This document shows positions 3,830-44,292 of a stretch of 64,000 bases of DNA, in pieces (within the stretch, counting starts at the first letter, position 1; the number at the start of each line of letters is the position of its first letter). This DNA comes from a virus. The stretch is from the IMG/VR virus record IMGVR_UViG_3300045988_183986; one strand, given 5' to 3'. A program made the translations under genes and the position numbers. The notes under the pieces are model-generated. The model was not told the origin of the DNA, made no database searches, and saw only the letters and a program-made list of their open reading frames with translations.

Positions 3830-3867
3830 ACAAAAAATACCGCCACCTCTTACGAGATAGCGGTATG
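3830..3867 (-). terminator. leader hairpin + T-run between class B promoter and gene start
   Basis: ATACCGC...GCGGTAT stem then TTTTTT on minus strand, ~30 nt before start codon. Confidence 0.4.
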
Positions 3868-3904
3868 TTGATTTTGAATTGTAATTGTATTTTATCTATC
3901 GAAT

Positions 3905-3940
3905 ATACTTAGTATATCGATTTTGCAGCAATTTGCAAGC
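3905..3940 (-). promoter_or_regulatory. class B promoter (TTGCAA-aTTGCTGCAAAAtcga-TATACT)
   Basis: Conserved spacer motif. Followed by leader hairpin/T-run at 3830..3867. Confidence 0.5.
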
Positions 3941-5992: not shown

Positions 5993-6026
5993 ACAAAAAA
6001 ACAGCCATCTCGATTGAGATGGCTGC
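5993..6026 (-). terminator. leader terminator (hairpin + T7) directly upstream of RBS
   Basis: CAGCCATCTCaatcGAGATGGCTG + TTTTTTT on minus strand, between promoter 6085..6120 and start at 5971. Confidence 0.55.
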
Positions 6027-6084
6027 ACGAACAGATTTTGAACTAAAACAAGTCAAGGAATTGATACTTTGATTTATCTTAGTT

Positions 6085-6120
6085 CCTTAATTATATCTAC
6101 TTTGCAGCAATTGACAAGAT
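6085..6120 (-). promoter_or_regulatory. class B promoter (TTGTCA-aTTGCTGCAAAGtaga-TATAAT)
   Basis: Conserved spacer motif. Confidence 0.5.
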
Positions 6121-8239: not shown

Positions 8240-8276
8240 TTTTTCTAAATAAAAAAGGCAGCTATTTTCTCAAAAA
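8240..8276 (-). terminator. leader terminator upstream of 7962..8219
   Basis: GGTAGCTATTTTTgagAAAAATAGCTGCC + TTTTTT on minus strand, ~95 nt downstream of class B promoter, ~20 nt before start. Confidence 0.5.
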
Positions 8277-8371
8277 TAGCTACCTTTAGTACATTGTGAT
8301 TGGCGATAATTCAATCATGCACGCCCACAAAACTCTGGTACGATGCATTGTGTGATTTTATTTATCGGATA

Positions 8372-8406
8372 ACTATATATTATTAACTTTGCAGCAATTT
8401 GCAAGT
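8372..8406 (-). promoter_or_regulatory. class B promoter (TTGCAA-aTTGCTGCAAAGttaa-TAATAT)
   Basis: Conserved spacer motif. Flanked by terminators on both sides. Confidence 0.5.
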
Positions 8407-9792: not shown

Positions 9793-9845
9793 AGCGAATA
9801 CCTCCATGTTTTAAATTAGGTTAATGTTCGGACATCTATATAAAC

Positions 9846-9883
9846 AGCAAAAAGCCGCCAATGGGACAATCCACTGGCGGCTC
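9846..9883 (-). terminator. leader terminator upstream of small membrane paralogs
   Basis: AGCCGCCAGTGGattgtcCCATTGGCGGCT + TTTTT on minus strand. Confidence 0.5.
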
Positions 9884-9929
9884 AGTTGCCGATTGCAATA
9901 ATACAGTTAAATCATTTGATTTATGTTAT

Positions 9930-9965
9930 GTCTCAATTATATTAACTTCGCAGCATAATGCAAGA
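9930..9965 (-). promoter_or_regulatory. class B promoter (TTGCAT-tATGCTGCGAAGttaa-TATAAT)
   Basis: Variant of conserved spacer, immediately after sortase stop. Confidence 0.45.
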
Positions 9966-9971
9966 GCTTTT

Positions 9972-10943
9972 TCAGAAGACTTCGTCAAGTTTTGCACATA
10001 CAATAAAACGAGTATCGTAATTATCACTGCCTGAACAGGTGGACAAAATCAAAACCTTATCATTCAATCCAACTTCTGTGGCGTACTGATTGTAAGAGTA
10101 AGCTTTCATACTTGCAATCTCTGTCAGAAAATACGAATCATCCGGATTCGCAATGGTATAACTTGGGTCAATAGGATAATCGGCAACAGCAAAGATTTTC
10201 CATCGTGTCTGTTGTTCACCCAGAGTAAGATAAATATACCGATGTTCTTTTGCAAAGTTGACATCGCGGAAGTATTTCAAAACACTGAATTTCTTGTGCA
10301 TACTGTTTCCGTTGCTATGTCCAAAAATAACAGTTACTCTGTACATATCATCAACATTGCTGACATTCCATTCGGAGGGAACAAAATAAGCGCCCCAGAT
10401 ACTTTCCCTATCGAACTCATTGTGAGTCAGATAATAATCATCGTCTGTGGGATGCTGCAAAATTGGCTCATCTGTAACATCAACGCCGGGAACAGTTAAG
10501 TAACCAACGGTGTTTTTGGAATACGCTGGCTTTGGTGTCGGTTCCGGTTCTGAATCACTCTCACTTGAATTAGAAGACGGGATAAGAATCGAGGGAGTAG
10601 AAACAGGTTCTTCTACATCATCGGAGATGTTTCCTGTCTCATATGCAGGGATATGATAGTAATCATACGCTTTCCATCCAATATAGCCAATCATGGCAAT
10701 AAGAACGATGCAGATTACGACCAACAAAACTGTCCAGATGGAAAATCGCCGTTTCTCTTTGTCCTCTGACGCGTCCATCGCATCCATCGATTCATTGTCA
10801 TCCTCGTCATGACTTGCCTTTTGATGAGGGAAGTTTTCACCAGTTCCATCATCCTCATCATTTGGAATGTAATTGTACGCACCAAGTTCCTGCTCGAAAT
10901 GTTCTTCTTCAGGCAGTGGTGGAATAATAGGTGTTTTTGCCAT
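9972..10943 (-). CDS. srtB: class B sortase
   Basis: N-terminal TM anchor. Conserved His in IFGHSNGNS, catalytic Cys in LILSTCSGSD (TLxTC-like), Arg in YDTRFIVCAKL. Confidence 0.7.
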   Translation of the reverse strand: MAKTPIIPPLPEEEHFEQELGAYNYIPNDEDDGTGENFPHQKASHDEDDNESMDAMDASEDKEKRRFSIWTVLLVVICIVLIAMIGYIGWKAYDYYHIPAYETGNISDDVEEPVSTPSILIPSSNSSESDSEPEPTPKPAYSKNTVGYLTVPGVDVTDEPILQHPTDDDYYLTHNEFDRESIWGAYFVPSEWNVSNVDDMYRVTVIFGHSNGNSMHKKFSVLKYFRDVNFAKEHRYIYLTLGEQQTRWKIFAVADYPIDPSYTIANPDDSYFLTEIASMKAYSYNQYATEVGLNDKVLILSTCSGSDNYDTRFIVCAKLDEVF

Positions 10944-10954
10944 AATACATCACC

Positions 10955-12118
10955 TTATTCAGCTGCGGCAGACCGCTCGTACACATCAATGCAGTAGTTG
11001 CCCATAATCTTGTTGTACATGCACTCCTGTGCCAAAGGACCTGCCCCATAGGTATCAACGGCGTTATCATAGTTACTGCCAATATAAGCTTTTACTTCAT
11101 CGACAGACGGTTTATAGTCCTGTTCCTCTGCCAGATACTGCGCAACAAGGCTCAGTAAAACATTTTCTTCCGTCTGACTACGAAGACTTTCTGAATACTC
11201 CTCCGAGGTCTTATAATTGCTGTATGTCTGAACGAATGTCTCCAAGTCCATATTGTAGGCAGTTGCTTCGTTTTCGACATACTTCAAGTTGGTTTCAAGA
11301 CTCAGGTTGACAAGGTCTGTCGTATCCTTTTTGAGTTTTACATTGTCAATGAAATACTGTTCAATCTCATTCTGAATCTTATTCATACGAAGATTCTCTT
11401 CAACATATTCACGAAGCAGGTCTACTGTAGTTACAGCAGTGCCGTCTTGCAGCTTGTAGCCACTCATGATACCGGCAACATCAGCATCTGTCATGCTATA
11501 TTGAGAAATCTTATTAAGCGTTACATGGAAAACAGCTTCCTTGTTGGCGAGCTCGATAGTCTGCTCGCCTGTGGTTCTATCTGTTGTACTGCTATATCCA
11601 TCAGGGAATGTTACTGTGACGTCAAACGAATCCCCCGTGTTATGCCCGACGATTTGCTCTTCAAATCCGTCAATAAAGGTATTGGAACCGAGTTCCAAAT
11701 CGTAGTCTTCTGTTGTTCCACCGGTAAAAGCAACACCATCAACCGTACCCTCGTAGTTAATGTTCACAACATCGCCTTCCTGTGCGGCGCGGTCTGTTAC
11801 CTCTGTCGTCAGCTTGTAATTGGACTGAAAATAATCCAACTCATTTTGAATCTCCTCGTCTGTAACGGCGTATACATCTTTGCTGACCGTATACTTCTTA
11901 TAATCCTTGGGCATTTTTATGTACTTGGATGCAGTCACATCACGAAAATACCCGTCATCATCAAGACCGAGGTCATACTCAACAGCGGAAGCTGTTTCGG
12001 AGGTGGCTGTTTCCGCAGTCTCAGATGCACTTGTATCGGCCGTATCTTTACTGCACGCGGTCAATGCAATACATGCAGCACTGATGACCGCCAGAATCAT
12101 TTTTGCGTTTTTCTTCAT
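10955..12118 (-). CDS. trigger-factor-like FKBP-type PPIase lipoprotein (lacks ribosome-binding N-domain)
   Basis: Start MKKNAKMILAVISAACIALTACS (signal peptide + lipobox LTAC) with AAGGAG RBS. GDVVNINYEGTVDGVAFTGGTTEDYDLELGSNTFIDGFEEQIVGHNTGDSFDVTVTFPDGY closely follows the trigger-factor PPIase domain pattern. C-terminal ~200 aa are TF C-domain-like. Confidence 0.65.
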   Translation of the reverse strand: MKKNAKMILAVISAACIALTACSKDTADTSASETAETATSETASAVEYDLGLDDDGYFRDVTASKYIKMPKDYKKYTVSKDVYAVTDEEIQNELDYFQSNYKLTTEVTDRAAQEGDVVNINYEGTVDGVAFTGGTTEDYDLELGSNTFIDGFEEQIVGHNTGDSFDVTVTFPDGYSSTTDRTTGEQTIELANKEAVFHVTLNKISQYSMTDADVAGIMSGYKLQDGTAVTTVDLLREYVEENLRMNKIQNEIEQYFIDNVKLKKDTTDLVNLSLETNLKYVENEATAYNMDLETFVQTYSNYKTSEEYSESLRSQTEENVLLSLVAQYLAEEQDYKPSVDEVKAYIGSNYDNAVDTYGAGPLAQECMYNKIMGNYCIDVYERSAAAE

Positions 12119-12132
12119 GAAAATCTCCTTTA

Positions 12133-12170
12133 TAAAAAGACCCCGGCAGACAGGTTGCCTACCGGGGCAG
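12133..12170 (-). terminator. GC-rich hairpin + T-run after secE-like gene
   Basis: CCCCGG...CCGGGG stem followed by TTTTT, then RBS of lipoprotein gene. Confidence 0.45.
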
Positions 12171-12174
12171 TATT

Positions 12175-12426
12175 TTAAACGAACAGGAACGGGACATGAA
12201 GCAGCAGGGCATAAGCTGCATCCATGATACCAATGATAACGGCAGACACAGCGCTCACAGCAAGAACTGCTCCGGTTCGACGGAACGTATTGCGCATACT
12301 CGGCCAAGTCACATTTTTGGGTGCAACCAGATTGTGCAGTTTCTTGGGCGTGCTCTTGATGAAAGAAGGAATTGCCTTCACGAAATTCACGATAGCCATT
12401 CCAATCTTTTTCAGTTTCTTTTTCAT
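12175..12426 (-). CDS. secE: SecE-like small translocon subunit
   Basis: Start MKKKLKKIGM. KNVTWPSMRNTFRRTGAVLAVSAVSAVIIGIMDAAYALLL matches the bacterial SecE pattern (K.V.WP...E..R.T..V......F.LD). ATG overlaps the upstream gene stop (ATGA). Confidence 0.6.
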   Translation of the reverse strand: MKKKLKKIGMAIVNFVKAIPSFIKSTPKKLHNLVAPKNVTWPSMRNTFRRTGAVLAVSAVSAVIIGIMDAAYALLLHVPFLFV

Positions 12427-12677
12427 GCCGCACCTCCTACTCCGGTTACTACGAACATGATGATTGCGATAACAAGCAGAATAGCTGTACATACAGCAAC
12501 CAGTTTATTTGCGGACGTTTTCGTGCTGTCTTTAGCACTCGAGCGCATTGTATCACTGATTCCGGTGATAACACTAAGACTGTTCTTGTCAGCCTTATCC
12601 ATGGAAAGCGTAACCGCACAAACCAGAACAGAAACCAGCAGAATCAAGATGCACAGAATGATTTCATAAATTGCCAT
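12423..12677 (-). CDS. secG: SecG-like two-TM protein
   Basis: 84 aa. TM1 + polar loop (NSLSVITGISDT) + TM2, resembling SecG topology. Translationally coupled between SecY and SecE paralogs. Confidence 0.45.
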   Translation of the reverse strand: MAIYEIILCILILLVSVLVCAVTLSMDKADKNSLSVITGISDTMRSSAKDSTKTSANKLVAVCTAILLVIAIIMFVVTGVGGAA

Positions 12678-12692
12678 TGTGTTGCCCTCCCG

Positions 12693-14033
12693 TCAATTCA
12701 AGAAACCCTTGTGATGGCGAACCACCAAATGGCTGTTAAGAGAATCGATAACTTCAAGCGTAACACCTGTGACAATCAACAGACTGGTACCGCCAAAGTG
12801 CATATTCAGACCTGTAACCGCAGTTGCCAAGATAGGCACACATGCAATAACCGAAAGAACAAATGCTCCCGAACCGGCGAGAGAATGGCAAGCATTGCGC
12901 AAATAATCACTGGTAGCTTTGCCTGCTCGAATACCGGGGATACTGCCGCCGTTCTTGCGCAGGTTGTTTGCCATTTCGATGGGGTCGAATGTGATGTCGA
13001 TGTAGAATAAGTTGAATGCGAAAATCAGGGCTACATACGCAACATCATAAATCCAATTCCGCGAATTCCAAGATGCCAGCGCCATATACAGGCTGGGGTG
13101 CTTGTTGTAATCGAGGAACATCGTCACGAGAGACGGCATACTGCAAATGGTGGACGAGAAAATAATAGGCATAACACCCGACATAATCAGTTTGATGGGG
13201 ATATAACTGGACTGACCAGTGGATGCTTTGTTCCCTACATTTTTACCGGCATACTGAACAGGAACGCGGCGCTCTGCATCGCTTGCGAAAACGACATAGA
13301 AGGTGGCCACCAAAACAAAGAGGATGACGCCGGGAATCATCAGATAATACCACCATCCATTTTCTTTGCCCATTGCAATAGAGTTCTGGAACAACGAGAT
13401 GACAGCATCCCATCTGGAAATGATACCGGTAAAGATGATAAGGGAAATACCGTTGCCAATACCTTTTTCGTCAATCAGCCATCCAAGCCAGATGACGATT
13501 TGAGAACCAGCAGTCAGAATGGCAATAACAGTAATGGCTTCCACGACCTGCGAAATGCCGGAAGTGTATTTCATCGCACCGTAGTTCTTCATAATAAAGA
13601 AGTACCCGATAGCTGTTACGACCGCCAAACCACAACCAACATACTGCGTGATTTTATTGATTTGCTTCTGCCCGCCGATGTCCTTGCTGATTTCTTCCAG
13701 TTTCGGAATCGCAACAGTCAAAAGCTGGATGATGATGCTTGCGTTGATGTATGCAGATACGCCAATCGCAAATACCGCACACTGAGAAAGTGCGCCACCG
13801 GAAACCAGATTGTAATAATCCAGTACAGAGGTGCTTCCGAACATAGTCTGAAGCGCAGCGGTGTTTACGAACGGAATCGTAATACCGCAACCCAGACGAT
13901 AAATCAGAAGACAAAGGATGGTGAAGAGAATCTTGTTGCGAACATCATCCACCATCAGCTTCTGAAAGATGGTGCTGTTCGAATAAGACTTTTTGAGTTT
14001 CGGCTTTTTCGCCGGATTTTTAATGTTGTCCAA
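12693..14033 (-). CDS. secY: preprotein translocase SecY paralog
   Basis: 446 aa, 10 TM. ILFTILCLLIYRLGCGITIPFVN...SGGALSQCAVFAIGVSAYINASIIIQLL is the canonical SecY N-terminal signature. Not flanked by ribosomal-protein/adk genes. Confidence 0.85.
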   Translation of the reverse strand: MDNIKNPAKKPKLKKSYSNSTIFQKLMVDDVRNKILFTILCLLIYRLGCGITIPFVNTAALQTMFGSTSVLDYYNLVSGGALSQCAVFAIGVSAYINASIIIQLLTVAIPKLEEISKDIGGQKQINKITQYVGCGLAVVTAIGYFFIMKNYGAMKYTSGISQVVEAITVIAILTAGSQIVIWLGWLIDEKGIGNGISLIIFTGIISRWDAVISLFQNSIAMGKENGWWYYLMIPGVILFVLVATFYVVFASDAERRVPVQYAGKNVGNKASTGQSSYIPIKLIMSGVMPIIFSSTICSMPSLVTMFLDYNKHPSLYMALASWNSRNWIYDVAYVALIFAFNLFYIDITFDPIEMANNLRKNGGSIPGIRAGKATSDYLRNACHSLAGSGAFVLSVIACVPILATAVTGLNMHFGGTSLLIVTGVTLEVIDSLNSHLVVRHHKGFLN

Positions 14034-14057
14034 TGCTTACTCCTTCCGCGACTGAGA

Positions 14058-14333
14058 TTATCGAGCAAAGAAAGCAACGATGATTCGCATCAGAAAGGCT
14101 ACAACGGCCAACTTCGTTGCAAGCCACATGAACCAATCGAGTTTGTCGATACCTTCGTCGAATACATTTGTTGCGGCAGCATCTTTTTTGTTACTGTCGC
14201 AATCCCCGTCAACATGGTTTTTCTTGATTTTGTTGCGATTAAGCACAAACAAAGTTCGAAACAAAGCCCATGTTGCAATACAGAATCCGTATACGATTAG
14301 AAGCTCGATACAGAAACTGTGCAAAGACGACAT
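14058..14333 (-). CDS. small membrane protein, hypothetical
   Basis: 91 aa, two hydrophobic segments. Immediately upstream of SecY paralog in same operon. Confidence 0.4.
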   Translation of the reverse strand: MSSLHSFCIELLIVYGFCIATWALFRTLFVLNRNKIKKNHVDGDCDSNKKDAAATNVFDEGIDKLDWFMWLATKLAVVAFLMRIIVAFFAR

Positions 14334-15010
14334 TAAGCGGATGCGCCGTTGGCGTCAGGAGTCGTATTGGAGGCGGTCTCGGCAACGGCCTCTACCGGAG
14401 TTTCCGTGACAGTCTCTGCGGGAGAAGTGATATCCCCGGTGATTGTGGGGACGTTGGCATCTTCTGCGACCGACTCATTGACGGGCGCTTCAATAACCGC
14501 ATCCTTGACTCCATCAGCAGTCACTTTCTTTGCTGCGATTTTTGCGAAGTGCTCATTGCGCTTTTCACGGCAAGCCTTGCAGCGGGTGGGGAGCTTGTAG
14601 TCATGGACGACATACCAGTACAGCTCGCGATTGGTAAACTGCAGCTTCTGACCGCAATCTGCGCAGGTGTCTTCCAGACCGATGTTATCCAGCCCGCGCT
14701 TCACGAAGTCGCGATGAATTTTGCGGCATTCCGGGCAGCGGTTCGGCAGAGAATAACCGTGACTCTCGAAGAAATCGCGGTCACGATTGGTGATGTCGAA
14801 TTCATGACCGCAGTCAACGCACTTGCGGGTCTCAAACACCTCATTGCTCTTTGCATCAGCTTCCTTGCGAGCTTCATCCTCTGCGCGGTGTTTTGCGAAA
14901 TCGTCACGCATACGACACTCGCGGCACAGCACCTCGCTCTCATTGGCGGTGCTGAACGGCTTGTTGCACTTCTCACAGGTCTTGCGGAACTTCTTTGCTG
15001 CATCTTTCAT
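14333..15010 (-). CDS. triple zinc-ribbon protein, hypothetical
   Basis: Three CxxC-(N15-22)-CxxC units (CEKC..CREC; CVDC..CPEC; CADC..CKAC), each followed by an FTN/ITN motif. Acidic C-terminal tail. Confidence 0.5.
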   Translation of the reverse strand: MKDAAKKFRKTCEKCNKPFSTANESEVLCRECRMRDDFAKHRAEDEARKEADAKSNEVFETRKCVDCGHEFDITNRDRDFFESHGYSLPNRCPECRKIHRDFVKRGLDNIGLEDTCADCGQKLQFTNRELYWYVVHDYKLPTRCKACREKRNEHFAKIAAKKVTADGVKDAVIEAPVNESVAEDANVPTITGDITSPAETVTETPVEAVAETASNTTPDANGASA

Positions 15011-15053
15011 GGTTTAAGTCTCCTTTATGGTAAAAAATTAAAATAATGATTGA

Positions 15054-15569
15054 TTAGGCGTTGGGACCAGAAAAAGAATCGATAATTTCATCAACGTGGA
15101 CGTTCAAGTCGGACTTGTCATCATCTTTCTTGGCGGGCTGTTTTACAGGAACAACGATATCAGGCTCATTCTTCTTTTCCTCCGCCGCCTTTTCTTCAAC
15201 AGGCTTCTCTGCGGATTTATCCTTGGCCTCAGTGACCTCGGACGCACTATCGGAATCCACCTTGCCGGATTCATCCTTACCGGCATCAGGATTCGCCTCG
15301 GTTGCCTTATCAGTATCCTTTTTCGTCTCATCATGCTTGCGTTCTACGCGGATGACATGAACGGCAGCCACGGGCGCGTGATGAATATCATCGATGCGCT
15401 CATCACAACCGCAGCACTCATCACAGTCATCACAATCGTCGTCATCATAAAGATAACCGTCATCCTCCAACTCTTTGATGACCTCGTTCTTCACATACTT
15501 GGTCGTGAGTTTCAGGGCAACGGCTGCAACAGTGGCGGCACCAATAACGGACAGAATGTTCTTCTTCAT
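15054..15569 (-). CDS. N-terminally anchored acidic protein with DDDDCDDCDECCGCDE cluster
   Basis: 171 aa. N-terminal hydrophobic segment. Asp/Cys-rich metal-binding-like cluster. K/E/D-rich tail. First gene after class A promoter at 15610..15646. Confidence 0.45.
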   Translation of the reverse strand: MKKNILSVIGAATVAAVALKLTTKYVKNEVIKELEDDGYLYDDDDCDDCDECCGCDERIDDIHHAPVAAVHVIRVERKHDETKKDTDKATEANPDAGKDESGKVDSDSASEVTEAKDKSAEKPVEEKAAEEKKNEPDIVVPVKQPAKKDDDKSDLNVHVDEIIDSFSGPNA

Positions 15570-15609: not shown

Positions 15610-15646
15610 TATTTATATTATACCACATAAATATAATGTGGTCAAT
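15610..15646 (-). promoter_or_regulatory. class A promoter: TTGACC-N17-TATAAT with TGTGGTATAATATA
   Basis: Minus-strand reading TTGACCacattatatttatgTGGTATAATATA. Drives the 15569->12175 operon. Confidence 0.6.
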
Positions 15647-15862: not shown

Positions 15863-16966
15863 ATGACATTTCAAAAGGGTGTAAAATTTAGAATCTACCC
15901 AAACCGGGAGCAGCGCAATCTGATTGACCGCACTCTCGGTTGCAGCAGACTCATTTACAATAAAGGTCTTGCCATGCGGGAGGACGCTTTCAAAAGCGGG
16001 GAAAAGTGCGGCTACAAGCAAACTTCTGCTATGCTGACAGCGCTCAAGCAGGATGCGAACTACGCGTTTCTCAAAGAGGTGGATTCCATTGCTTTGCAGC
16101 AAGCGCTGCGAAACCTTGATGCCGGATACACAAACTTTTTCGAGCATAGAGCTGCACATCCAAAATTCAAAAGCAAAAAAAGCGCCAAACAATCATACCG
16201 CACACTCAATATTGATAACGGTATACGCATTTCTAATAAGCGCATTCACTTACCGAAAATCGGTTGGGTAAAAGTTCATCAGTCTATGGAGATTGGCGCA
16301 ATTCACAACGCAACAGTAGCACGCACAGCCACCGGTAAATATTTCGTAGTTCTTAATGTGGAATATGACCCTCAGCCTATGCCAAACAACGGTTGTGTAG
16401 TAGGCATTGATGTTGGACTCAAAGAATTCTATTCCGATAGTAACGGTACTGTGGTTAATAACCCCAAATACTTGGAGAAAAAAGCCAAAAAACTTGCTCG
16501 CGAACAGCGGCGTTTGGCTCGCAAACAGAAAGGCTCACATAATCGTGAAAAGCAGCGTATAAGAGTCGCTGCCGCCCACGAAAAGATTGCTAATCAACGA
16601 AACGATTTCCTTCAAAAACAGTCTACTATGCTGGTGCGTGAAAATCAAACCATCTGCATCGAAGACCTTAATGTAAAGGGAATGCTTCGTAATCATAAAC
16701 TTGCAAGAGCTATTTCCAGTGTTTCGTGGTCGTCTTTCTTTGGCATGCTGGAGTACAAAGCCTATTGGTACGGTTGTACAGTAATTCGTGTACCTACATT
16801 CTATCCGAGCAGCCAAACATGCAGTTGCTGCGGCTATAAGAATGTGGCTGTCAAGAACCTCAGCATCCGTCAATGGGAATGTCCGTCTTGTCACACGGTT
16901 CACAACCGCGATAAAAACGCTGCCGTTAATATTTTGCATAAAGGGCTTGAGCAAAAGTCCGCTTGA
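15863..16966 (+). CDS. tnpB: IS200/IS605-family transposase accessory protein TnpB (RuvC-like, RNA-guided nuclease family)
   Basis: [34 protein letters not shown]-terminus. C-terminal zinc finger [27 protein letters not shown]. Confidence 0.85.
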
Positions 16967-17782: not shown

Positions 17783-19207
17783 TCAATATTCTGCCACGAT
17801 GTTATCATCGGGTTTCTTCTTTATCAAAGAGTCCCCGAATCGATTTACATGTTCTTTCGGCGGTTCAATGACCTCGATGTCGGTATCCTCCACTTTTTCG
17901 ATTTCGTCAGAGGAATCGTCATCTTTTTCATTCTGAACCTTATCCGATGGATTGGTGATTTGTGCATCCTCTTTTGCAACATCTGAAAGCAAATCAAATG
18001 TCAACTGAGAATTTGAGGACGCTGGTTTCTTTTCTCTTTTCTTGGTTGTTTGGCGTTTTTTGGAAGTTCTTTTTGACTTTACAGGTTCATTGGAACCACC
18101 CTCGCTTGTTTTTGCACTTGCTGTGTTTGAATCAGCAACCGCATCCGCTGAAGCCTTATCCTTGTTTGTTTCTGTGACGGGTTCCTGAACCTTTTTGTTT
18201 TTTGATAAATCATCTTTGTCTGATTGTTTTGATTCCAAAGCAGAAGACTCTTGTGCGTTTGAACCTTGTCCTTCTTGCACTACAGATTCTTCCTTTACTG
18301 GAACCTTGGCAGTTCCCTTCTGCAAAAGGCCATCGATTGCTACAACGGCCTCAGACTTCTTTTCTTCGGACTCCGCCTTCTGTACTGCACGGCGAATCGC
18401 CTCGGTTTTTTCTTTCTTTTCTTTTTCTGCTGATGCGGTATTTTCGTTTTCCTTTATCTCAGCAGGCACATTCATGTCAGATTTCGAATTCCACCACTTT
18501 TCAATAGTAGTAATCGTTCTTTCTACTAATATTATACCACAAAATTTGTGGTTTGACAACTTGCGGCTCGGCACAAAGCATACAATGCCGCACAGAGAAA
18601 CAACCAGTAAAACAATAGCAAGTCCTGCATCAAAAATAAAACAAATAAACGACACCGGAATCAGCAGTTCACAGATACCACGCATGATAAATACTGTTTT
18701 ATCTCCTTGGTCTTTTCGGTTTTGCATAAAACTGTCTCTCCCCTTCTGCGGGTGATAAGACAAACCACTTGACAAGCCGTTTGTTGCCCAATCACAAGGT
18801 ATCTCGTAAGTCTTTTCTCCTAAGCTGTCTGTGTACTGAATTACAGCAATATCAAAATACTCACCATTCTTCTGTGATGCCAAGAATGCACGTAAGAATT
18901 CATTTCCAACAGACCGCGCAGGAACAATAATCGTTTCGATGCCGTCAGAATCTTTTGCGGCGATATCTACTACATAGGTATCATCTTCACCGCGCCATAC
19001 GTTCTGCACAATACCGCGCACCAATATACCGCGCTTATGAACACGCCTTCCCATAAAAGTAAAGGAGTTTTCAGAGTACCATGTGTTTACCATGCAATAC
19101 GCAGCAATAATAAGCAATGTAAGGTACTTAACATTTATGGAGATAATGCTTAAAGAAAAAATATACGGAACGAGCATCAGCAAGACGAATGATACAAAGC
19201 TATTCAC
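17783..19207 (-). CDS. membrane protein with K/E-rich C-terminal half, hypothetical (contains internal class A promoter)
   Basis: 474-aa ORF. N-terminal TM segments. C-terminal low-complexity K/E/S-rich region. Confidence 0.45.
18525..18560 (-). promoter_or_regulatory. class A promoter-like sequence inside ORF 17783..19207
   Basis: Minus strand TTGTCAaaccacaaattttgTGGTATAATATT shares the exact TGTGGTATAATAT block with intergenic class A promoters. Confidence 0.4.
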
Positions 19208-21391: not shown

Positions 21392-22453
21392 TTAAACGCG
21401 AGCGTCAATCAGGCAATTCAGCAGCCCGTTCGCGTCACAGCCAAACAATAAGCATCCGAACACACCAATGGCATGTCCTTTTCTGGTAGAGAATGTTCCT
21501 GCCGTAACACCAAGATGCCCGGCAATCTGCTCATCTGTCCAGTTGTACTTTTTCCCCTCAATCATTGCAAGGATAACGTCATAATAACGTTGACCAAGCG
21601 GAAACTGTTTCATGATTTCGACAGCCCCTCGTATGAGTTTCACATACTCCACAATGAGATAGGCATCGCTTCTGTTTTTATCAGAAACTTTGATTTTACT
21701 CAAATCTTCGTACGAAGAAGACCCAAGCAGTTTCATGGCGGGGTCCTTTGACCGTGAGGCACGATACAGAATACGCGTGTATTCCGTAAGAAGCAGCGGA
21801 ACATTATGATAAAGGCTTGCTTCTTCTACCCCGTCCACATCACTGCTTGTCATCAGGATTTTATAATATTCCTTGATAACACTACCTGCTGTATTGTAAA
21901 CGGATTCAATGCACCGCTCGCAATACTTCATGATTTTGATGCGTCCATTCTTCGGAAGAACGGCGGGATTCAAAAAGCAATCAAACACCTCCCGCATGCT
22001 GGAACAATAATCGACTTCGTACAAGAGTTCTAACCGCGACTCCTCAATGGCGTCAAGAAGCATCTGACAACTTTCGAAGTATTCTTTGCGTTTCCTGAAA
22101 TGCAAAGACTCTTCCTCAATATTCGGAGCCAGCCAGCTCTGAATACGGCGCAAACGGGAAATGGCTTCGACATCGCACATCTCATCGTCGTGAACGTTTT
22201 CACAGTTCTGCATCATGACATCAAGGTCTTGTGCCTGCATCATCCATTTGAGTGCCGGATACAATATCATCAGAACAGCCGCTTCTTTCAGTTCCGGCCG
22301 CTCTTCCACAACACGGTTTACGCACTTTGTCAGCACATAAGAATTGGGGATGTCTCCGCCAAAACTTCTACGCAGAACAATGTTGTCCTGCATAATAGCA
22401 TCGAGCAATGCGTAAAGCTGCTGTTCTTGGGCTTTATTCAATGCTTCGGACAA
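21392..22453 (-). CDS. sigma-70 region-4 (HTH) domain protein, possible divergent sigma factor/regulator
   Basis: C-terminus FPLGQRYYDVILAMIEGKKYNWTDEQIAGHLGVTAGTFSTRKGHAIGVF fits the sigma70_r4 pattern (LP.RQR.V..L.Y..g.s..EIA..LG.s.GTV.SR). No clear region 2 seen. Confidence 0.5.
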   Translation of the reverse strand: MSEALNKAQEQQLYALLDAIMQDNIVLRRSFGGDIPNSYVLTKCVNRVVEERPELKEAAVLMILYPALKWMMQAQDLDVMMQNCENVHDDEMCDVEAISRLRRIQSWLAPNIEEESLHFRKRKEYFESCQMLLDAIEESRLELLYEVDYCSSMREVFDCFLNPAVLPKNGRIKIMKYCERCIESVYNTAGSVIKEYYKILMTSSDVDGVEEASLYHNVPLLLTEYTRILYRASRSKDPAMKLLGSSSYEDLSKIKVSDKNRSDAYLIVEYVKLIRGAVEIMKQFPLGQRYYDVILAMIEGKKYNWTDEQIAGHLGVTAGTFSTRKGHAIGVFGCLLFGCDANGLLNCLIDARV

Positions 22454-22919: not shown

Positions 22920-22952
22920 TTGACTTTTTCGCGTTTTTGTGGTATTATATAA
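22920..22952 (+). promoter_or_regulatory. class A-type promoter on plus strand
   Basis: TTGACTttttcgcgtttttgTGGTATTATATA upstream of 23048..23710. Confidence 0.5.
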
Positions 22953-23047
22953 GTGCAGTAAAGGTATAATTTATATTACCGGTTACAAAGATTGTTGTTT
23001 TCGGTAATTATATAAACTTGTCTGTTAAACCAAGCAGGAGGGAAATT

Positions 23048-23710
23048 ATGAGTAACAATATCAACAACAACCACGAATCGGTAGAGAATATCTTCAATGC
23101 TTTCTTGATGGGAGGCAAAATGAACACTGCTTCCAAACAAGAACGAGCAAAAATTGTAGATACCTTTATGGAACAGGCAAAATCTTGCTTTGTTGACACG
23201 GAGAATACCGTGAAATATCTGAATGTTCTGATGGAACGGACGAGACTCCGTTATGGGTTTACCGCTGATGAATTTGCAGCAATGTTGGGATACAGCAGCA
23301 CTGCCGCTTACAACAAGACATTCATGCAACCAAATGCAAACTTTGGAACTGTAGTATTTCCTTATGTGGTTCAGTTTTGCTATCTGTTTGGCTATAATTT
23401 GTCAATTCCTGATTCCGTGTCTGCTCCGCAAACAGTGGCAGACCTATACTCTTTGGAACTGGCTTCTTTTCTGATTTCTCTTGGCCCCGATGCAATGGAT
23501 GATATTTCAAGAACATTGGTCGGTGCCGAATACCTTGACCCGAATTTAAGAAAAACAAGTTCTCAAATACTTTCAAAGGCAAAGAAATACTTCTATGGTA
23601 ATGATGGTGAAGCGTTACCCAATGAAGTTCAGTACCGCAACAGATTAGATAACGCTGAGAATAAGATTAAGCGTCTCGATAAAATAGAGAAAGCCAATCA
23701 CGACAAATGA
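23048..23710 (+). CDS. HTH (XRE-like) domain protein
   Basis: ORF 23018..23710. Start MSNNINNNHE with GGAGGG RBS. FTADEFAAMLGYSSTAAYNK helix-turn-helix-like segment. Confidence 0.45.
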   Translation: MSNNINNNHESVENIFNAFLMGGKMNTASKQERAKIVDTFMEQAKSCFVDTENTVKYLNVLMERTRLRYGFTADEFAAMLGYSSTAAYNKTFMQPNANFGTVVFPYVVQFCYLFGYNLSIPDSVSAPQTVADLYSLELASFLISLGPDAMDDISRTLVGAEYLDPNLRKTSSQILSKAKKYFYGNDGEALPNEVQYRNRLDNAENKIKRLDKIEKANHDK

Positions 23711-24175
23711 TTAGCCGCCAAACATATCGGCTAACTGTAATGCAAGCATCGCTTCTTCTGAAATAGGAGGCGGTGCTTCTTCTGTTTTGGGAGTTGTGTT
23801 GATGGTTTGTGTGTCTGTAATGTTTTGGGGGGAGTAATTTGAAGCTGGCGCAGCTACCGCAATCCCGTTTTTCTGAATGCTGCTTGTCACTGCATCTACA
23901 ATCTGAGGGATACAGCTTCTGATTTCTTCTGCTATTGTGTTTTGCAGTTCCTCTTTTAAGATGGACTGCGCTTCTTGCATCTCATGTTGTTTTGTAGCCT
24001 TGTCGATTATAGCATTTACAACCGCATCGGTTTTTCCGCCGCGTTGCAAACTGTTCAGATAATCATATACAAGTACATGATTGTCTTTGCTTAAATCAAA
24101 AACAAGTGTGGTTCGTACCGTCGTGCCAACGGTCTCTTTTTCTGTTTCATTCTTTTTGGGACGTCCACGCGGCAT
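23711..24175 (-). CDS. parR: ParR-like ribbon-helix-helix centromere-binding protein
   Basis: DNHVLVYDYLNSLQRGGKTDAVVNAIIDKAT resembles the pSK41-type ParR N-terminal RHH (YPQIFDFLENVPRGTKTAHIREAL). AT-hook-like MPRGRPKK. Immediately downstream of parM. Confidence 0.5.
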   Translation of the reverse strand: MPRGRPKKNETEKETVGTTVRTTLVFDLSKDNHVLVYDYLNSLQRGGKTDAVVNAIIDKATKQHEMQEAQSILKEELQNTIAEEIRSCIPQIVDAVTSSIQKNGIAVAAPASNYSPQNITDTQTINTTPKTEEAPPPISEEAMLALQLADMFGG

Positions 24176-24208
24176 TCAGTGCTCACCACGCTTTCGAAAA
24201 CGGTGCTC

Positions 24209-25168
24209 TTAAATTTCACCGCTCATGGTCAGCTTTGCACGAGCCATGATTTCATATCCTTTTGCATTTGCGGTTACATCCGTCAAGAAGAAAAGGTTCT
24301 TGGTGTCAATGGCTCGCTCGATGCTTTCGCGCATCATAGCAGAACCACCGCCCATAAAGATGAAATAGGATGTTTTGAAGTCGTCCTTGATTTTTTCGGA
24401 AATCGTACGAATCAATGCTGTTGCATAATTGTCTGCGGTTTCCTTGGCAATTTTCACGGCGTTTTCATCGACCAGCATGTTGTTGTTCCCTGCAAGGATT
24501 GCCTCAGCCATGTAGTCATCGACCGACAAGGAACAATGGACACGCAGCTCGCTCTCGACAGTGCTCAGGAGTTCAATGACTCCACGGTCATAGCTTTCGC
24601 AGAAAGAAAGGTCCGGAGCATAAGTGTTGCCACGACCAGAGAAACGAATCACATCCGTGGTATACCCGCCGATGTCTACGACATAAGAACGGGGATAGCG
24701 CTTGATTTCCTTCTGAATCTCGCTTGCTGCCGTAATAGAAAAGCCCTGAGGATAGACAAAGACATGCTTGACAGTAATCTCAAACGGGATATCTTTGTAC
24801 ATGAAATTGATGAGTTTCCCGCTTTTGCCGAAATACTCATCATACTTCGCTTTCAGGGACATATGCTGCGGGGGCAAGCCCATCGCGAGGCATACATCGT
24901 ATTTGTAGAATTTCTGATTGGGATACTTCTTTATAAGGTTCTTTGCTACGGCAATCAGCGTCAGCAAAAAGTAAGTATCATCCTTCGTCTTATCCTGCTG
25001 ATAAGGCGTGCGGCTGTCATTGAGAGAATAATACTTCCCCATATAGCACATCGTCTCTCCCTTGATAGCCGGTTCAGTCGTACCGTGACGAACAAGACCA
25101 GTGGGAAACGGCTCACAGCCAGGCGTCTTCATTGCCTTGTTTCCGGTATCTACTCCAATAATCTCCAT
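24209..25168 (-). CDS. parM: actin-like segregation ATPase ParM/StbA family
   Basis: ORF 24209..25468. Start MEIIGVDTGNKAMK with GGAGGA RBS (phosphate-1 motif). DIGGYTTDV (phosphate-2/adenosine motif). Confidence 0.7.
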   Translation of the reverse strand: MEIIGVDTGNKAMKTPGCEPFPTGLVRHGTTEPAIKGETMCYMGKYYSLNDSRTPYQQDKTKDDTYFLLTLIAVAKNLIKKYPNQKFYKYDVCLAMGLPPQHMSLKAKYDEYFGKSGKLINFMYKDIPFEITVKHVFVYPQGFSITAASEIQKEIKRYPRSYVVDIGGYTTDVIRFSGRGNTYAPDLSFCESYDRGVIELLSTVESELRVHCSLSVDDYMAEAILAGNNNMLVDENAVKIAKETADNYATALIRTISEKIKDDFKTSYFIFMGGGSAMMRESIERAIDTKNLFFLTDVTANAKGYEIMARAKLTMSGEI

Positions 25169-25279
25169 AAAAAATCCTCCGAACGAGTCGCAATATAGTT
25201 GAAAGTACGAATTTTGGGATACTCTGCGTGATAAAATATAAGTGTCTACCAGATAACAATGGGACTCACTGACTGATGT

Positions 25280-25390
25280 ATAGCGGTTGTTAAAACGGAA
25301 AGAACAACTAATATACAACTGCCTGTTGTTATCATGATACCACACATGCAGTTGTCCAGCAACGAACTTTTGTTCGCATAGACAACAAAA
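25280..25390. promoter_or_regulatory. cluster of GTTGT/ACAAC inverted repeats (candidate parC centromere / divergent operator region)
   Basis: GTTGTTaaaacggaaagAACAAC, ACAACtgcctGTTGT, GTTGtccagCAAC, gACAACa within ~110 bp between parM (minus) and the XRE gene (plus). Confidence 0.45.
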
Positions 25391-25406
25391 AAGAAAGGAG
25401 TTATTT

Positions 25407-25637
25407 ATGCCATCCACCTTTGATACCATGGTAGGAAAGCGAATCAAAAAGCAACGAATGGAAATCAATTACAGCCAAGAACAGTTGGCGGCAAGCACGA
25501 ATTGTTCCTATCGCTGCATCCAAAAATGGGAGTCAGGAAAGACGATGCCGCGAGCGCAGATGCTATGTAATTTAGCAAAAGCCTTACATGTTTCGTCTGA
25601 CTGGCTGCTGGGTATTTCCAATGACAGGAACGGTTAA
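25407..25637 (+). CDS. XRE-family HTH transcriptional regulator
   Basis: 76 aa. INYSQEQLAASTNCSYRCIQKWESGKTMP is a classic Cro/CI-type HTH. AAAGGAG RBS. Confidence 0.7.
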   Translation: MPSTFDTMVGKRIKKQRMEINYSQEQLAASTNCSYRCIQKWESGKTMPRAQMLCNLAKALHVSSDWLLGISNDRNG

Positions 25638-28670: not shown

Positions 28671-28952
28671 TTAAGTTCGATGAACTTTGTTTTTCATACA
28701 ACAAGGAAGGCAACAGACACCGTATGTGTTATTGCCCCACTCGCAATGCGCTCGACTGCAAATAACACCGCGTTGGGCTTTGACGGTTTTCTTCTCTTCT
28801 TTCTTCTTTTCGATTTCGCCTTCCCGAAGAATGGTCTTTACTTCCTTTGTTGTGATACCATACTTTCTGGCAATCTGAACGACCGTTTTTCCTCCGTTGA
28901 ATTCCTCTACAGCCTGTTCATGTGTTACGCCACAGCCAAATTTTCCGTACAT
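28671..28952 (-). CDS. small HTH + Cys-rich protein
   Basis: GKTVVQIARKYGITTKEVKTIL HTH-like. C-terminal CxxxxHCxWG..CCLPCC. Confidence 0.4.
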   Translation of the reverse strand: MYGKFGCGVTHEQAVEEFNGGKTVVQIARKYGITTKEVKTILREGEIEKKKEEKKTVKAQRGVICSRAHCEWGNNTYGVCCLPCCMKNKVHRT

Positions 28953-30962: not shown

Positions 30963-31119
30963 TGAATCTGTCCCCCGTATTTGCTTGTTAATTCGTATGA
31001 TATTGCCTATTTATTCTAATATAGTCAACATCAAAAAACTGCGTAAAAAATCGCACAGATGTTCTTCTGCGCTGTTCCACCATAGAAATATCACCGATAT
31101 TCCCTGTTCATCTTGAACA

Positions 31120-31156
31120 TATCTATATTATACCACATTAAAACAAGGTAGTCAAC
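31120..31156 (-). promoter_or_regulatory. class A promoter TTGACT-N17-TATAAT (TGTGGTATAATATA)
   Basis: Minus strand TTGACTaccttgttttaatgTGGTATAATATA. Confidence 0.55.
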
Positions 31157-31162
31157 GACAAA

Positions 31163-31200
31163 AACCGTCGCAAATGTTAGTTTTCGCATTTACGACGGCT
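31163..31200 (-). terminator. rho-independent terminator after flotillin gene
   Basis: 12-bp stem CCGTCGcAAATG/CATTTaCGACGG followed by T-run on minus strand. Confidence 0.5.
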
Positions 31201-31223
31201 GAAGTTATATTTTTTTGAGCAAA

Positions 31224-33037: not shown

Positions 33038-33068
33038 TATTATATTATACCACAAATAGGCAAAAGAA
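33038..33068 (-). promoter_or_regulatory. class A-type extended -10 promoter (weak -35)
   Basis: tttgTGGTATAATATA on minus strand. Confidence 0.4.
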
Positions 33069-33123
33069 TCAATTAAAAAGATGAGCAAGATACTTCTCGC
33101 TCGCCTTCTGCTTTTCTGTGTTG

Positions 33124-34271: not shown

Positions 34272-34306
34272 CTTTTATTGTATCTACTTTGCAGCAAATA
34301 GCAAAG
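34272..34306 (-). promoter_or_regulatory. class B promoter (TTGCTA-tTTGCTGCAAAGtaga-TACAAT)
   Basis: Contains the conserved TTGCTGCAAAG spacer. Overlaps upstream terminator. Confidence 0.5.
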
Positions 34307-34921: not shown

Positions 34922-34958
34922 TTTCTATATTATACCACATTTTGCCTTAATGGTCAAC
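34922..34958 (-). promoter_or_regulatory. class A promoter TTGACC-N17-TATAAT
   Basis: TTGACCattaaggcaaaatgTGGTATAATATA on minus strand. Confidence 0.55.
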
Positions 34959-34969
34959 TTGTATAATAC

Positions 34970-35875: not shown

Positions 35876-35912
35876 TGCTTATATTATACCACCAAAAGCA
35901 TAAATAGTCAAC
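35876..35912 (-). promoter_or_regulatory. class A promoter TTGACT-N17-TATAAT
   Basis: TTGACTatttatgcttttggTGGTATAATATA on minus strand. Confidence 0.55.
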
Positions 35913-43943: not shown

Positions 43944-44087
43944 CATGTTAGTTGCCCTCCTAATAATGTGAGTGTTCTGTGGTTTTACCACAGCCGGATT
44001 TATATACACCCTTACCTACTCCCTAGTGTGCAGCCTCGATTGTAGATAAGAAAGTATATCAAAACACAAGCAATCAAATTGCATATT

Positions 44088-44120
44088 TACAATATGCCAC
44101 AAAAAGACAGAAAAGTCAAT
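44088..44120 (-). promoter_or_regulatory. degenerate class A-like promoter inside long 5' UTR
   Basis: TTGACTtttctgtctttttgTGGCATATTGT on minus strand. Confidence 0.3.
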
Positions 44121-44129
44121 CAAAAATTT

Positions 44130-44145
44130 TGGCACAAAAATGCCA
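44130..44145. promoter_or_regulatory. perfect palindrome TGGCA-N6-TGCCA in adhesin 5' UTR
   Basis: tggcacaaaaatgcca. Candidate operator. Confidence 0.3.
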
Positions 44146-44257
44146 CCCATGAACGCATTCTCATATTTCGTATGGACATGGATGGTTGAAACATTAACGC
44201 AAAACCTGCTTGACTATAGCTATTATTTGTTCTGAGAAATTTGATGCTGTATTTATA

Positions 44258-44292
44258 TCTATTATATTACTTACTTTGCAGCAACGGTCAAT
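44258..44292 (-). promoter_or_regulatory. class B promoter (TTGACC-gTTGCTGCAAAGtaag-TAATAT)
   Basis: Conserved TTGCTGCAAAG spacer. ~230-nt 5' UTR to the 2,650-aa adhesin gene. Confidence 0.5.

Follow-up and report, generated by a model that had tools for sequence, protein, structure and literature searches.

The closest described counterparts of the element reported here are the KorA (OA) and KorB (OB) operators of RK2/RP4 and the SPBRE element of SPbeta, a repeated promoter-embedded sequence bound by the master repressor MrpR (PMC10516654). In these systems a near-invariant, element-specific motif occurs in many promoter regions, in about 7-12 copies, and one element-encoded protein exerts coordinate control; SPBRE was found in silico decades before its binding protein (PMC10516654). 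Here we describe a comparable motif, a 12-bp box within the spacer of a promoter-like module, in a stretch of 64,000 nucleotides (nt; hereafter the window) from IMG/VR virus record IMGVR_UViG_3300045988_183986. As in the Kor and SPBRE systems, the motif is near-invariant, specific to its element and present in many promoter regions, whereas its binding by one such protein is what we infer. It differs from them in its copy number (at least 37 per plasmid), its asymmetry, its fixed register within the -35/-10 spacer, and its link to a conserved leader and terminator. The best reading of our analyses is that a dedicated plasmid-encoded factor would read the box, most likely as a repressor.

Judging by its sequence, the window is part of a "Hodor" conjugative megaplasmid of human-gut Bacillota (PMC12934698), and its GC content and sequence would place it in Hodor group G2. 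Hodors were described in a 2026 preprint as conjugative megaplasmids of more than 300 kb, comprising groups G1 and G2, with presumed Bacillota hosts (PMC12934698); the words promoter, terminator, sigma and antitermination never occur in the text of that preprint. Megablast of 24 kb of the window against PLSDB and INPHARED gave no match. Many contigs from human-gut metagenomes, up to 235 kb in length, encode the exact SecY protein of the window, and one variant adjoins Rep_3 and ParA.

Six sites in the window share one architecture on the minus strand: TTG(C/T/A)nn, a 16-nt spacer and a -10-like TAnnnT, with the box (T)TGCTGCAAAGT in the spacer (positions 7-18, TTGCTGCAAAGT), at -27..-16 between the -35 and -10 elements. 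All six had been listed in a preliminary description made from the letters of this DNA, and each was recovered with its -35- and -10-like elements in one register; the spacer, given there as 16-17 nt, is 16 nt in every copy. The modules and the terminators found ahead of two of them are as follows.

3911..3938, minus strand: core promoter of module 1 (-35 TTGCAA, 3938-3933; -10 TATACT, 3916-3911; predicted +1 A, 3904)
3931-3920, minus strand: box of module 1, TTGCTGCAAAAT, with 1 mismatch
6090..6117, minus strand: core promoter of module 2 (-35 TTGTCA, 6117-6112; -10 TATAAT, 6095-6090; predicted +1 A, 6083)
6110-6099, minus strand: box of module 2, TTGCTGCAAAGT
8377..8404, minus strand: core promoter of module 3 (-35 TTGCAA, 8404-8399; -10 TAATAT, 8382-8377; predicted +1 A, 8370)
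8397-8386, minus strand: box of module 3, TTGCTGCAAAGT
8451-8420: terminator of the operon upstream of module 3
9936..9963, minus strand: core promoter of module 4 (-35 TTGCAT, 9963-9958; -10 TATAAT, 9941-9936; predicted +1 A, 9929)
9956-9945, minus strand: variant box of module 4, ATGCTGCGAAGT, in which box position 14 is G, as it is in G1
34277..34304, minus strand: core promoter of module 5 (-35 TTGCTA, 34304-34299; -10 TACAAT, 34282-34277; predicted +1, 34270)
34297-34286, minus strand: box of module 5, TTGCTGCAAAGT
44264..44291, minus strand: core promoter of module 6 (-35 TTGACC, 44291-44286; -10 TAATAT, 44269-44264; predicted +1, about 44257)
44284-44273, minus strand: box of module 6, TTGCTGCAAAGT
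44360-44331: terminator of the giant gene, ahead of module 6

The conservation of the spacer, which the preliminary description had singled out as unusual, exceeds what chance would produce. With at most one mismatch, the 11-mer TTGCTGCAAAG has eight matches in the window, all on the minus strand, where 1.59 are expected, and none of 100 shuffles reached eight. Among all 67 TTG-N19-TAnnnT sites of the window, the six modules have 0, 0, 0, 0, 1 and 2 mismatches to the 12-mer, and the next best site has 4. The core is identical in four of the six copies rather than invariant throughout as first thought, the two others being near-identical variants (TGCTGCAAAAT at site 3921 and ATGCTGCGAAGT at site 9930). 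The 11-mer matches at 16092, 23272 and 31812 were rejected as modules; they lie within open reading frames (ORFs) and have no -35/-10 elements.

When a strict pattern (TTGCTGCAAAGTNNATANNAT) was scanned over IMG/VR, large Hodor G2 contigs were matched many times, on one strand per contig, and elsewhere there were single chance matches. The fetched G2 pieces contained 55 distinct sites, corresponding to about 47 paralogous ones. One 346-kb G2 contig carried at least 37 sites in the 106 kb that were fetched, on the same strand and co-oriented with genes (31 with the exact core, 6 with one mismatch). The box is promoter-restricted on that plasmid: 32 of the 33 occurrences of its 10-mer stand in module context, none is inverted, and the last belongs to a module with a degenerate -35. 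Over 185,579 species-representative genomes, the strict pattern gave isolated, chance-level matches and no multi-copy or Hodor-like site, so the box is specific to the element and not a host promoter type. In related plasmids, fixing one half of the box leaves the other half invariant in 47-48 of 48 sites, and when only TTGC, TAYAMT and A+1 are fixed, the box is present in 26-27 of 31 sites.

The consensus of the 47 G2 paralogues (position 0 being the T of TTG) reads tcTTGc..tTTGCTGCAAAGT.aaTAtaMT......At...aaaAAtaaAA. TTG is invariant, the spacer is 16 nt in all copies, and T1, A2 and T6 of the -10 TAtAMT are found in 46-47 of 47. Position 4 of the -35 hexamer is variable (C in 35/47), and the partial dyad TTGCA-N6-TGCAA of the preliminary description is present at only two of the six window sites. 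The G2 box has an inner palindrome, TT(T)GC-T-GCAA(A); its conservation is asymmetric and reaches G17 and T18, which are without symmetric partners. The core elements match the sigma-A consensus at 9-11 of 12 positions, and from its -35, its spacer within 17±1 and its -10 we predict a sigma-A/sigma-70-type promoter. Of the 47 copies, 41 have an A at position 34, seven nt after the -10, and this A is the likely transcription start. This assignment is supported by one leader sub-family, whose 5'-terminal hairpin has the predicted +1 as its first nucleotide and carries compensatory changes (ACUAAG/UUUUAGU versus AUCAAG/UUUUGAU). Other promoter readings were rejected because they misfit the conserved positions or sigma spacing, namely the box as the -35 of another sigma, a sigma-54 -24/-12 promoter, and the downstream A-rich box as a -10 or a T4-late-like TATAAATA element.

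The modules come right after the terminator of the preceding operon and ahead of genes in the same orientation, and what follows the core is also conserved. The preliminary description had missed a conserved initially transcribed box, a leader RNA and an intrinsic terminator behind the motif, which together with the module form a cassette. It had also cautioned that the motif might be part of a longer dispersed repeat, such as a miniature inverted-repeat transposable element (MITE). The motif is indeed the upstream part of something longer, but a transposable repeat was rejected, as every copy is intergenic and follows the gene strand, the conserved blocks are broken by unrelated sequence of variable length, and no terminal repeats were seen. 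Since the cassette is always intergenic, co-oriented with genes and free of terminal inverted repeats, its greater length does not refute a promoter role. Genes behind the cassettes encode NrdD, a RecG-like helicase, a YqaJ exonuclease, AAA_5 and VWA proteins, an SLT transglycosylase, DUF3854, RHS, radical SAM, PIN7 and DUF4314 proteins, and many unknowns; the cassettes serve a broad part of the plasmid and not a single pathway.

In the G2 cassette, the second conserved block lies at about +5..+14 and reads (C)GATA(A/G)ATAA or AAAAATAAAA; as RNA, the leader has CGAUA(A/G)AUAA at +5..+14 and a AAUUCAAAAUC box. A hairpin with a T-run is found 32-118 nt after the predicted start in 40 of 47 G2 modules, compared with 36 of 400 random 126-nt gene-strand windows (9%) and 10 of 235 shuffled leaders. 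At a free energy (dG) below -14 kcal/mol, the figures are 29 of 47 modules and 5 of 400 random windows. About half of the terminator stems have the common sequence GCYATCTC-N4-GAGRTGGC, with TTCAAAATC ahead. The ribosome-binding site usually follows 5-30 nt after the T-run, which leaves no room for a further promoter. Five leaders of this kind are present in the window.

3831..3904, minus strand: leader 1, about 70 nt, with box CGATAGATAAAA (3900-3890), a AATTCAAAATC box, and a terminator hairpin (3866-3837) with T-run
5995..6083, minus strand: leader 2, with a 5'-terminal hairpin from +1 that includes box AAGATAAATCAAAG, then a TTCAAAATC box
6026-6001, minus strand: terminator hairpin of leader 2, GCAGCCATCTC-AATC-GAGATGGCTG, with T-run, then a ribosome-binding site and a 65-amino-acid (aa) ORF
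8248..8370, minus strand: leader 3, about 120 nt, with box CCGATAAATAAAA (8366-8356) and a terminator hairpin (8287-8254) with T-run; gene start at about 8213
9845..9929, minus strand: leader 4, about 85 nt, with box ACATAAATCAAAT and a terminator hairpin (9883-9852) with T-run; gene start at about 9792
44133..44257, minus strand: leader 6, about 120 nt, with box ATATAAATACA, a long hairpin (44183-44141) and a T-run (44139-44135)

Module 5 (34304) is the exception in the window, having neither a leader terminator nor the A-rich box; its transcript would run straight into a lipoprotein-like ORF with an ATG at 34212, a longer GTG ORF to 34329 being an artefact. Folding of the short G2 leaders gave no stable alternative (antiterminator) fold, with dG no lower than about -3 kcal/mol and an unstructured 5' part, which argues against a riboswitch-like antiterminator in them. 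The window had no match to the Rfam 15 covariance models at the gathering threshold.

Comparison with G1, which is deeply diverged, shows which parts of the cassette are shared. G1-type contigs were retrieved through the N-terminus of the 2,672-aa surface protein encoded in the window (81-82% identity) and through SecY (89-90% protein identity). At the orthologous promoter upstream of the surface-protein gene, TTGACCGTT (the -35 and its flank) is kept, and the box changes from GCTGCAAAG in G2 to TGTGCGAAG in G1. The preliminary description had suggested a motif search over related replicons; besides the 37 or more copies on the 346-kb G2 plasmid, this yielded a G1-type pattern that matched at least 120 stretches on many large gut contigs. 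The 77 G1 paralogue groups follow TTGC-N6-kTGCGAAyyG-N2-TAnAAT, in the same register and with a 16-nt spacer. In its 12-bp form the G1 box is GTGCGAATTG, the counterpart of TTGCTGCAAAGT in G2, and kTGCGAAyyG is not palindromic. Both lineages have the -35 TTGC, TGC at positions 11-13 and AA at 15-16, with lineage-specific flanks, and window site 9963 (TGCTGCGAAGT) is intermediate between the two boxes. A box that is lineage-specific within an unchanged layout, and that has no multi-copy occurrence in hosts, fits an element-encoded factor. To that extent the preliminary description, which proposed a dedicated regulator or an element-specific sigma-like factor, is partly supported; the protein that it named as sigma candidate is not, as set out below.

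The leader is conserved as well. At least 29 distinct G1 copies have a structured leader consisting of GTACGATAGATAnCA, a variable hairpin, CGTACA(A)TTCAcAATTTCGCTT and then the terminator. Helix P1 (GUACG/CGUAC) forms in nearly all minimum-free-energy folds, and compensatory changes affect 8 of 13 pairs in the terminator helix. A nearby terminator is found in 33 of the 77 G1 modules and in none of the other 44. Four G1 loci holding the structured leader had no Rfam match at E<=1. A covariance model built from G1 leaders only was searched against both strands of the G2 window without filters, and its four best matches were the leaders of modules 1, 4, 2 and 3 (E = 0.016, 0.17, 0.23 and 0.51; best match 3832-3910). 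Every match is weak singly, and all four coincide with leaders. By this comparison, G1 and G2 have inherited the entire cassette from a common ancestor.

Descent might also account for the box itself. No dedicated trans-acting factor would then be needed, the box being kept by cassette duplication or gene conversion, or by an intrinsic contact of the spacer with host RNA polymerase, which would tune promoter strength. The register is explicable by descent, and leader sub-families and gene families (MFEICNDK... in G1) have been duplicated along with the cassette. G1 proteins starting MFEICNDKT.. or MFKIHDDKV.. form a paralogous family found repeatedly directly behind the structured leader (two copies in L227, and in L239, L251, L235 and L337), so part of the cassette copy number stems from gene-plus-cassette duplication. 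We nevertheless consider this account very unlikely. The flanks (positions 4, 5, 19-21 and 28-33) are randomised, while 11-12 box positions are invariant in about 47 paralogues, which requires selection on the box; moreover, orthologous promoters of G1 and G2 carry different boxes, and host genomes are without such a promoter class.

Three further contigs bear on the distribution of the two boxes. Contig L021 (IMGVR_UViG_3300045988_183951), otherwise G2-type, carries a G1-type module, TTGCATGTTTGTGCGAACCGAATAGAAT, with a G1-type structured leader at about 13420-13580 on the minus strand, and a G1-pattern match (L234) lies on G2 contig IMGVR_UViG_3300029428_000172. A G1-type module on a G2-type contig means either that both box types can coexist on one plasmid or that the lineages exchange cassettes. 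A distant relative, L105 (ena:ERZ2916246 NODE_56), with a 52% identical homologue of a 353-aa protein of the window, has none of the modules described above (class A) in 21 kb. At about 2300-2345 it has an inverted TGCTGCGAAGT directly after the -10 of a canonical promoter, TTGACC...TGTGGTATAATAACTTCGCAGCAG; in this lineage the box may, on the strength of this single case, be an orientation-independent operator.

We tentatively read the box as the operator of a regulon-wide, plasmid-encoded repressor, with a probability of roughly 0.4. The core would be of the host sigma-A type, with -35 TTGCnn, a fixed 16-bp spacer, -10 TAtAMT and A at +1. A lineage-specific plasmid regulator would occupy the spacer box at -27..-16, where RNA polymerase must bind, and binding would switch the entire promoter class together, probably by repression during carriage, like RK2 KorA/KorB or SPbeta MrpR/SPBRE. 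Once made, the transcript would run through the conserved leader into a strong intrinsic terminator a few nt before the ribosome-binding site. With this terminator between promoter and gene, a read-through device is required, and operon expression would additionally depend on terminator read-through as a second control layer, a form of attenuation. The repressor is ranked first because the core is adequate for sigma-A alone, so that an activator is not obviously needed, because the spacer is the classical place for occlusion, and because large mobile elements often silence themselves via a repeated operator.

Several points weigh against a repressor. None of the approximately 45 window ORFs scanned with Pfam was identified as a box-binding protein. 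A dimeric repressor would not usually have a box with such asymmetric conservation, or one as non-palindromic as the G1 form. The -35 is TTGC and not TTGACA, the spacer is always 16 nt and there is no TG extension, whereas a second promoter class of the window (class B, below) is near-perfect consensus; these features could instead mean factor-dependent positive control. A repressor alone would leave the strong terminator in 85% of copies unexplained, and inheritance from a single ancestral cassette could account for the strict register. The positions of transcription start and termination are, in addition, predicted.

Positive control would make the box, perhaps with the -35 TTGC, the target of a plasmid activator, a sigma-appropriating factor or a divergent sigma. 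The modules would then form a temporal or conditional class, like T4 MotA-dependent middle, Mu Mor/C and lambda CII promoters. We judge this unlikely, although it would account for the prevalence of TTGC (35 of 47 G2 and 65 of 77 G1 copies) next to the constant spacer and missing TG, and for the existence of the second class, TTGACy-N12-aTGTGGTATAATATA, on the same plasmid. In both lineages TGC is repeated 10 bp apart (positions 1-3 and 11-13), which recalls the lambda CII site, TTGC-N6-TTGC. The T4 MotA box (-30), Mu Mor/C and CII systems are alike in having a class box, a fixed register with a sigma70-type -10 and a regulon of many promoters; their boxes replace or flank the -35, whereas here a -35-like TTGC is kept and the box is centred at about -22. 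A spacer position is unusual for an activator, and the core is good enough for unaided sigma-A.

Candidate proteins were considered for either sign of control. Three helix-turn-helix (HTH) or repressor-like proteins are encoded in the window.

25407-25637, against the gene flow: XRE repressor-like protein of 76 aa (Pfam, 1.5e-13; PHROG 'transcriptional repressor')
23018-23710, against the gene flow: HTH protein of 230 aa, with orthologues by position in G1 (41% identity) and in the distant relative (27%)
28671-28952, in a class-B-driven operon: HTH protein of 93 aa, weakly like Mor/C late activators and sigma70 region 4 (E 0.002-0.013)

The first two genes oppose an otherwise unidirectional gene flow. 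In the 230-aa protein, the putative recognition helix differs between the window, G1 and the distant relative; its divergence between G1 and G2 was discarded as a clue, as the neighbouring genes are similar in this respect and it is not diagnostic. The 93-aa protein would suit an activator or a sigma-like factor, but its similarity is under every curated threshold. The preliminary description had named the product of 21392..22453 as a protein with sigma70 region 4. This 353-aa protein has five homologue clusters, all Hodor-type, and an HTH-looking C-terminus, and we found no support for a sigma factor in it. It had no Pfam domain at E<5, its profile matched nothing among PDB sequences, and with its AlphaFold2 model (pLDDT 59) Foldseek found nothing at E<0.1, the sole sigma match being sigma28 at E=1 and probability 0.35. 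No region 2 or region 4 was recognisable by any of these searches, and tblastn against PLSDB gave no match. A 154-aa protein with an AT-hook (PRGRPKK) at its start is encoded behind the ParM/Alp7A-type actin gene (23711-25468, minus strand); its strand-helix-helix pattern looks like a ParR-type ribbon-helix-helix adaptor, and it would be a second DNA-binding protein and could be a regulator. The DxDGD signature of an element-encoded RNA polymerase was absent from the conserved cluster at 16.5-23 kb, where the ORFs look like membrane and zinc-ribbon proteins. Sigma, NusG, Q and other antiterminator families were likewise absent from the approximately 45 window ORFs (Pfam, PHROGs), the rest of the approximately 350-kb plasmid being unscanned.

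The repressor reading leaves the leader terminator to a second device, and two explanations would give this terminator a more central role. In the first, a box-bound plasmid protein would load onto RNA polymerase, so that the terminator would be passed only from these promoters. The model is lambda PR', which yields the 6S RNA without Q and has the Q-binding element (QBE) in the -35/-10 spacer. The factor would join polymerase in early elongation over +5..+14, and without it only 70-120-nt RNAs would be made. The lambdoid PR'/QBE/tR' unit and our cassette are alike in the spacer DNA element, the initially transcribed element and the close terminator that gives a short RNA. This layout, a promoter box plus a terminator within 126 nt, is found in 40 of 47 G2 and 33 of 77 G1 modules, against a background of 9%. 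In G1 as in G2, the conserved element keeps a constant distance from +1, the terminator lies right before the ribosome-binding site, and the leaders have no antiterminator fold of their own; the logic would also insulate operons from upstream read-through. We still regard Q-like control as rather unlikely. Pfam found no Q-family or NusG-family protein in the window, and 7 of 47 G2 and 44 of 77 G1 copies have no nearby terminator. The initially transcribed box, in contrast to that of lambda PR', is not clearly -10-like, and in the common register its hexamer has no T at position 6; compared with the pause element, its forms (GATAAAT/AAAAAT/GATAGAT) have T at position 6 in 29 of 47 and A at position 2 in 28 of 47. 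Each lambda phage carries a single promoter of this kind, with the Q gene immediately before it, whereas here there are dozens and no Q homologue in the window, and we know of no precedent for a Q-type device at dozens of promoters. A terminator-bearing 5' leader before operons, with a need for read-through, is also found in pLS20 conAn, LoaP leaders and HK022 put; these act once per operon cluster, whereas the leader described here is repeated before dozens of operons, with one promoter type. The broader proposal that Hodors run most operons by promoter-coupled antitermination, with orthogonal G1 and G2 box/factor pairs that prevent cross-talk between co-resident plasmids, seems to us quite unlikely.

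In the second explanation the cassettes would be small RNA genes, each producing a 70-120-nt terminated regulatory or decoy RNA, with the downstream genes served by other promoters or by leakage. Promoter, short transcript and strong terminator are the anatomy of such a gene, and the G1 leader is structured, conserved in sequence and without an Rfam family match. Behind the unit at 44291-44133, the downstream gene has a canonical promoter of its own, and a class-B promoter near 31130 is arranged alike (short RNA, terminator, further promoter). In most copies, however, a ribosome-binding site and start codon follow the T-run within 5-30 nt, and the operons would have no promoter. The middle of the RNA also varies greatly in length and sequence, shrinking to about 10 nt in some copies, and we assign this explanation little probability. 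The repressor, with read-through of the leader as a separate layer, is the reading that we retain.

The class-B promoters just mentioned are defined by seven copies of the 12-mer TGGTATAATATA in the window, where 0.13 are expected, within TTGACy-N12-aTGTGGTATAATATA, a near-perfect Firmicutes sigma-A consensus with an extended -10. They precede the Sec operon, the Dam operon, the flotillin gene, two small genes near the giant proteins, and a plus-strand HTH gene.

15614-15645, 31124-31150, 33041-33070, 34926-34960 and 35880-35910, minus strand: class-B sites
22940-22951, plus strand: class-B site
18528-18559, minus strand: class-B site inside an ORF
44091..44119, minus strand: additional canonical promoter (TTGACT, 17 nt, TG-extended CATATT), located after leader 6 and before the 2,672-aa ORF

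The last of these is a class-B relative that is conserved in the G1 orthologue as TTGACT...GTGGTATAAAG and is the likely direct promoter of the surface-protein gene. The preliminary description had module 6 drive this gene, given there as a 2,650-aa adhesin. Direct drive is unsupported, because the leader hairpin and T-run (44183-44135) and the canonical promoter (44119-44091) intervene between module and ORF; moreover, in two G1 contigs an insertion parts the module from the gene. This insertion, of a few hundred bases at about 2418-2760 in L089 and L091 (G1 contigs 181067 and 183547), separates the module from both leader terminator and gene, and is missing from L088 and L090. An approximately 70-nt leader and then a terminator-like hairpin (GCGCAGAAGAACATCTGTGCGATTTTTT) lie behind a class-B promoter at 30963-31223 (minus strand); next come a promoter-like TTGACTATATTAGAATAAATAGGCAATATCAT and a gene, in a layout that matches 44291-44091.

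Almost all genes of the window are on the minus strand. Pfam searches of the window ORFs identified SecY, an FKBP/trigger-factor-like protein, a ParM/Alp7A-type actin, a phage-type Dam methylase, flotillin, a PIN7 protein, DUF4314, an IS605-type TnpB on the plus strand, and a 2,672-aa protein with MBG domains; an ORF of more than 6,500 aa is also present. The main features outside the cassettes are listed here.

9972-15569, minus strand: plasmid-borne secretion module
10955-12433, minus strand: FKBP/trigger-factor-like protein, part of the secretion module
12693-14033, minus strand: SecY
within 9972-15569, minus strand: two small ORFs after SecY, one of which matches SecE (Pfam)
15863-16966, plus strand: IS605-family TnpB (OrfB_IS605 with a Cas12f-like TNB domain), inserted in an otherwise unidirectional region
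35991-44009, minus strand: 2,672-aa ORF with seven MBG_2 stretches
within 44374-63945, minus strand: giant ORF of more than 6,523 aa, with no Pfam match in its first 2,000 aa

The secretion module also encodes a zf_Tbcl zinc-ribbon protein and a 323-aa ORF at the place of sortase B in the Hodor preprint, and it lies upstream of giant surface-protein genes, as described for Hodors (PMC12934698). The TnpB insertion is polymorphic, being found in strains L005, L007, L009 and L010 and missing from L006 and L008; its gene holds a chance-looking exact copy of TTGCTGCAAAG at 16092-16102. A terminator separates each of the two giant ORFs from its neighbours. The ATG of the larger one, at 63945, is 55 nt from the end of the window, and its true start is uncertain.

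The cassette would work like a Kor/SPBRE operator regulon or like lambda PR'-QBE-tR', and it cannot be filed as a member of either. It has not been described before in these gut megaplasmids, an abundant class that was recognised only recently; Hodors are common in human-gut Bacillota, with no cultured host and no known regulation. One cis-element at 37 or more operon starts per plasmid predicts both the transcription units and a master regulator, and the leader adds a new, highly repeated RNA motif outside Rfam. The G1 and G2 promoter/box systems, which are apparently orthogonal, are possible tools for gut Firmicutes. If a promoter-loaded factor does bypass the leader terminators, Q-type control would be extended from one phage promoter to a whole replicon. 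Taken from the sequence, the cassette points to a plasmid-encoded master switch that would govern most operons of the plasmid.

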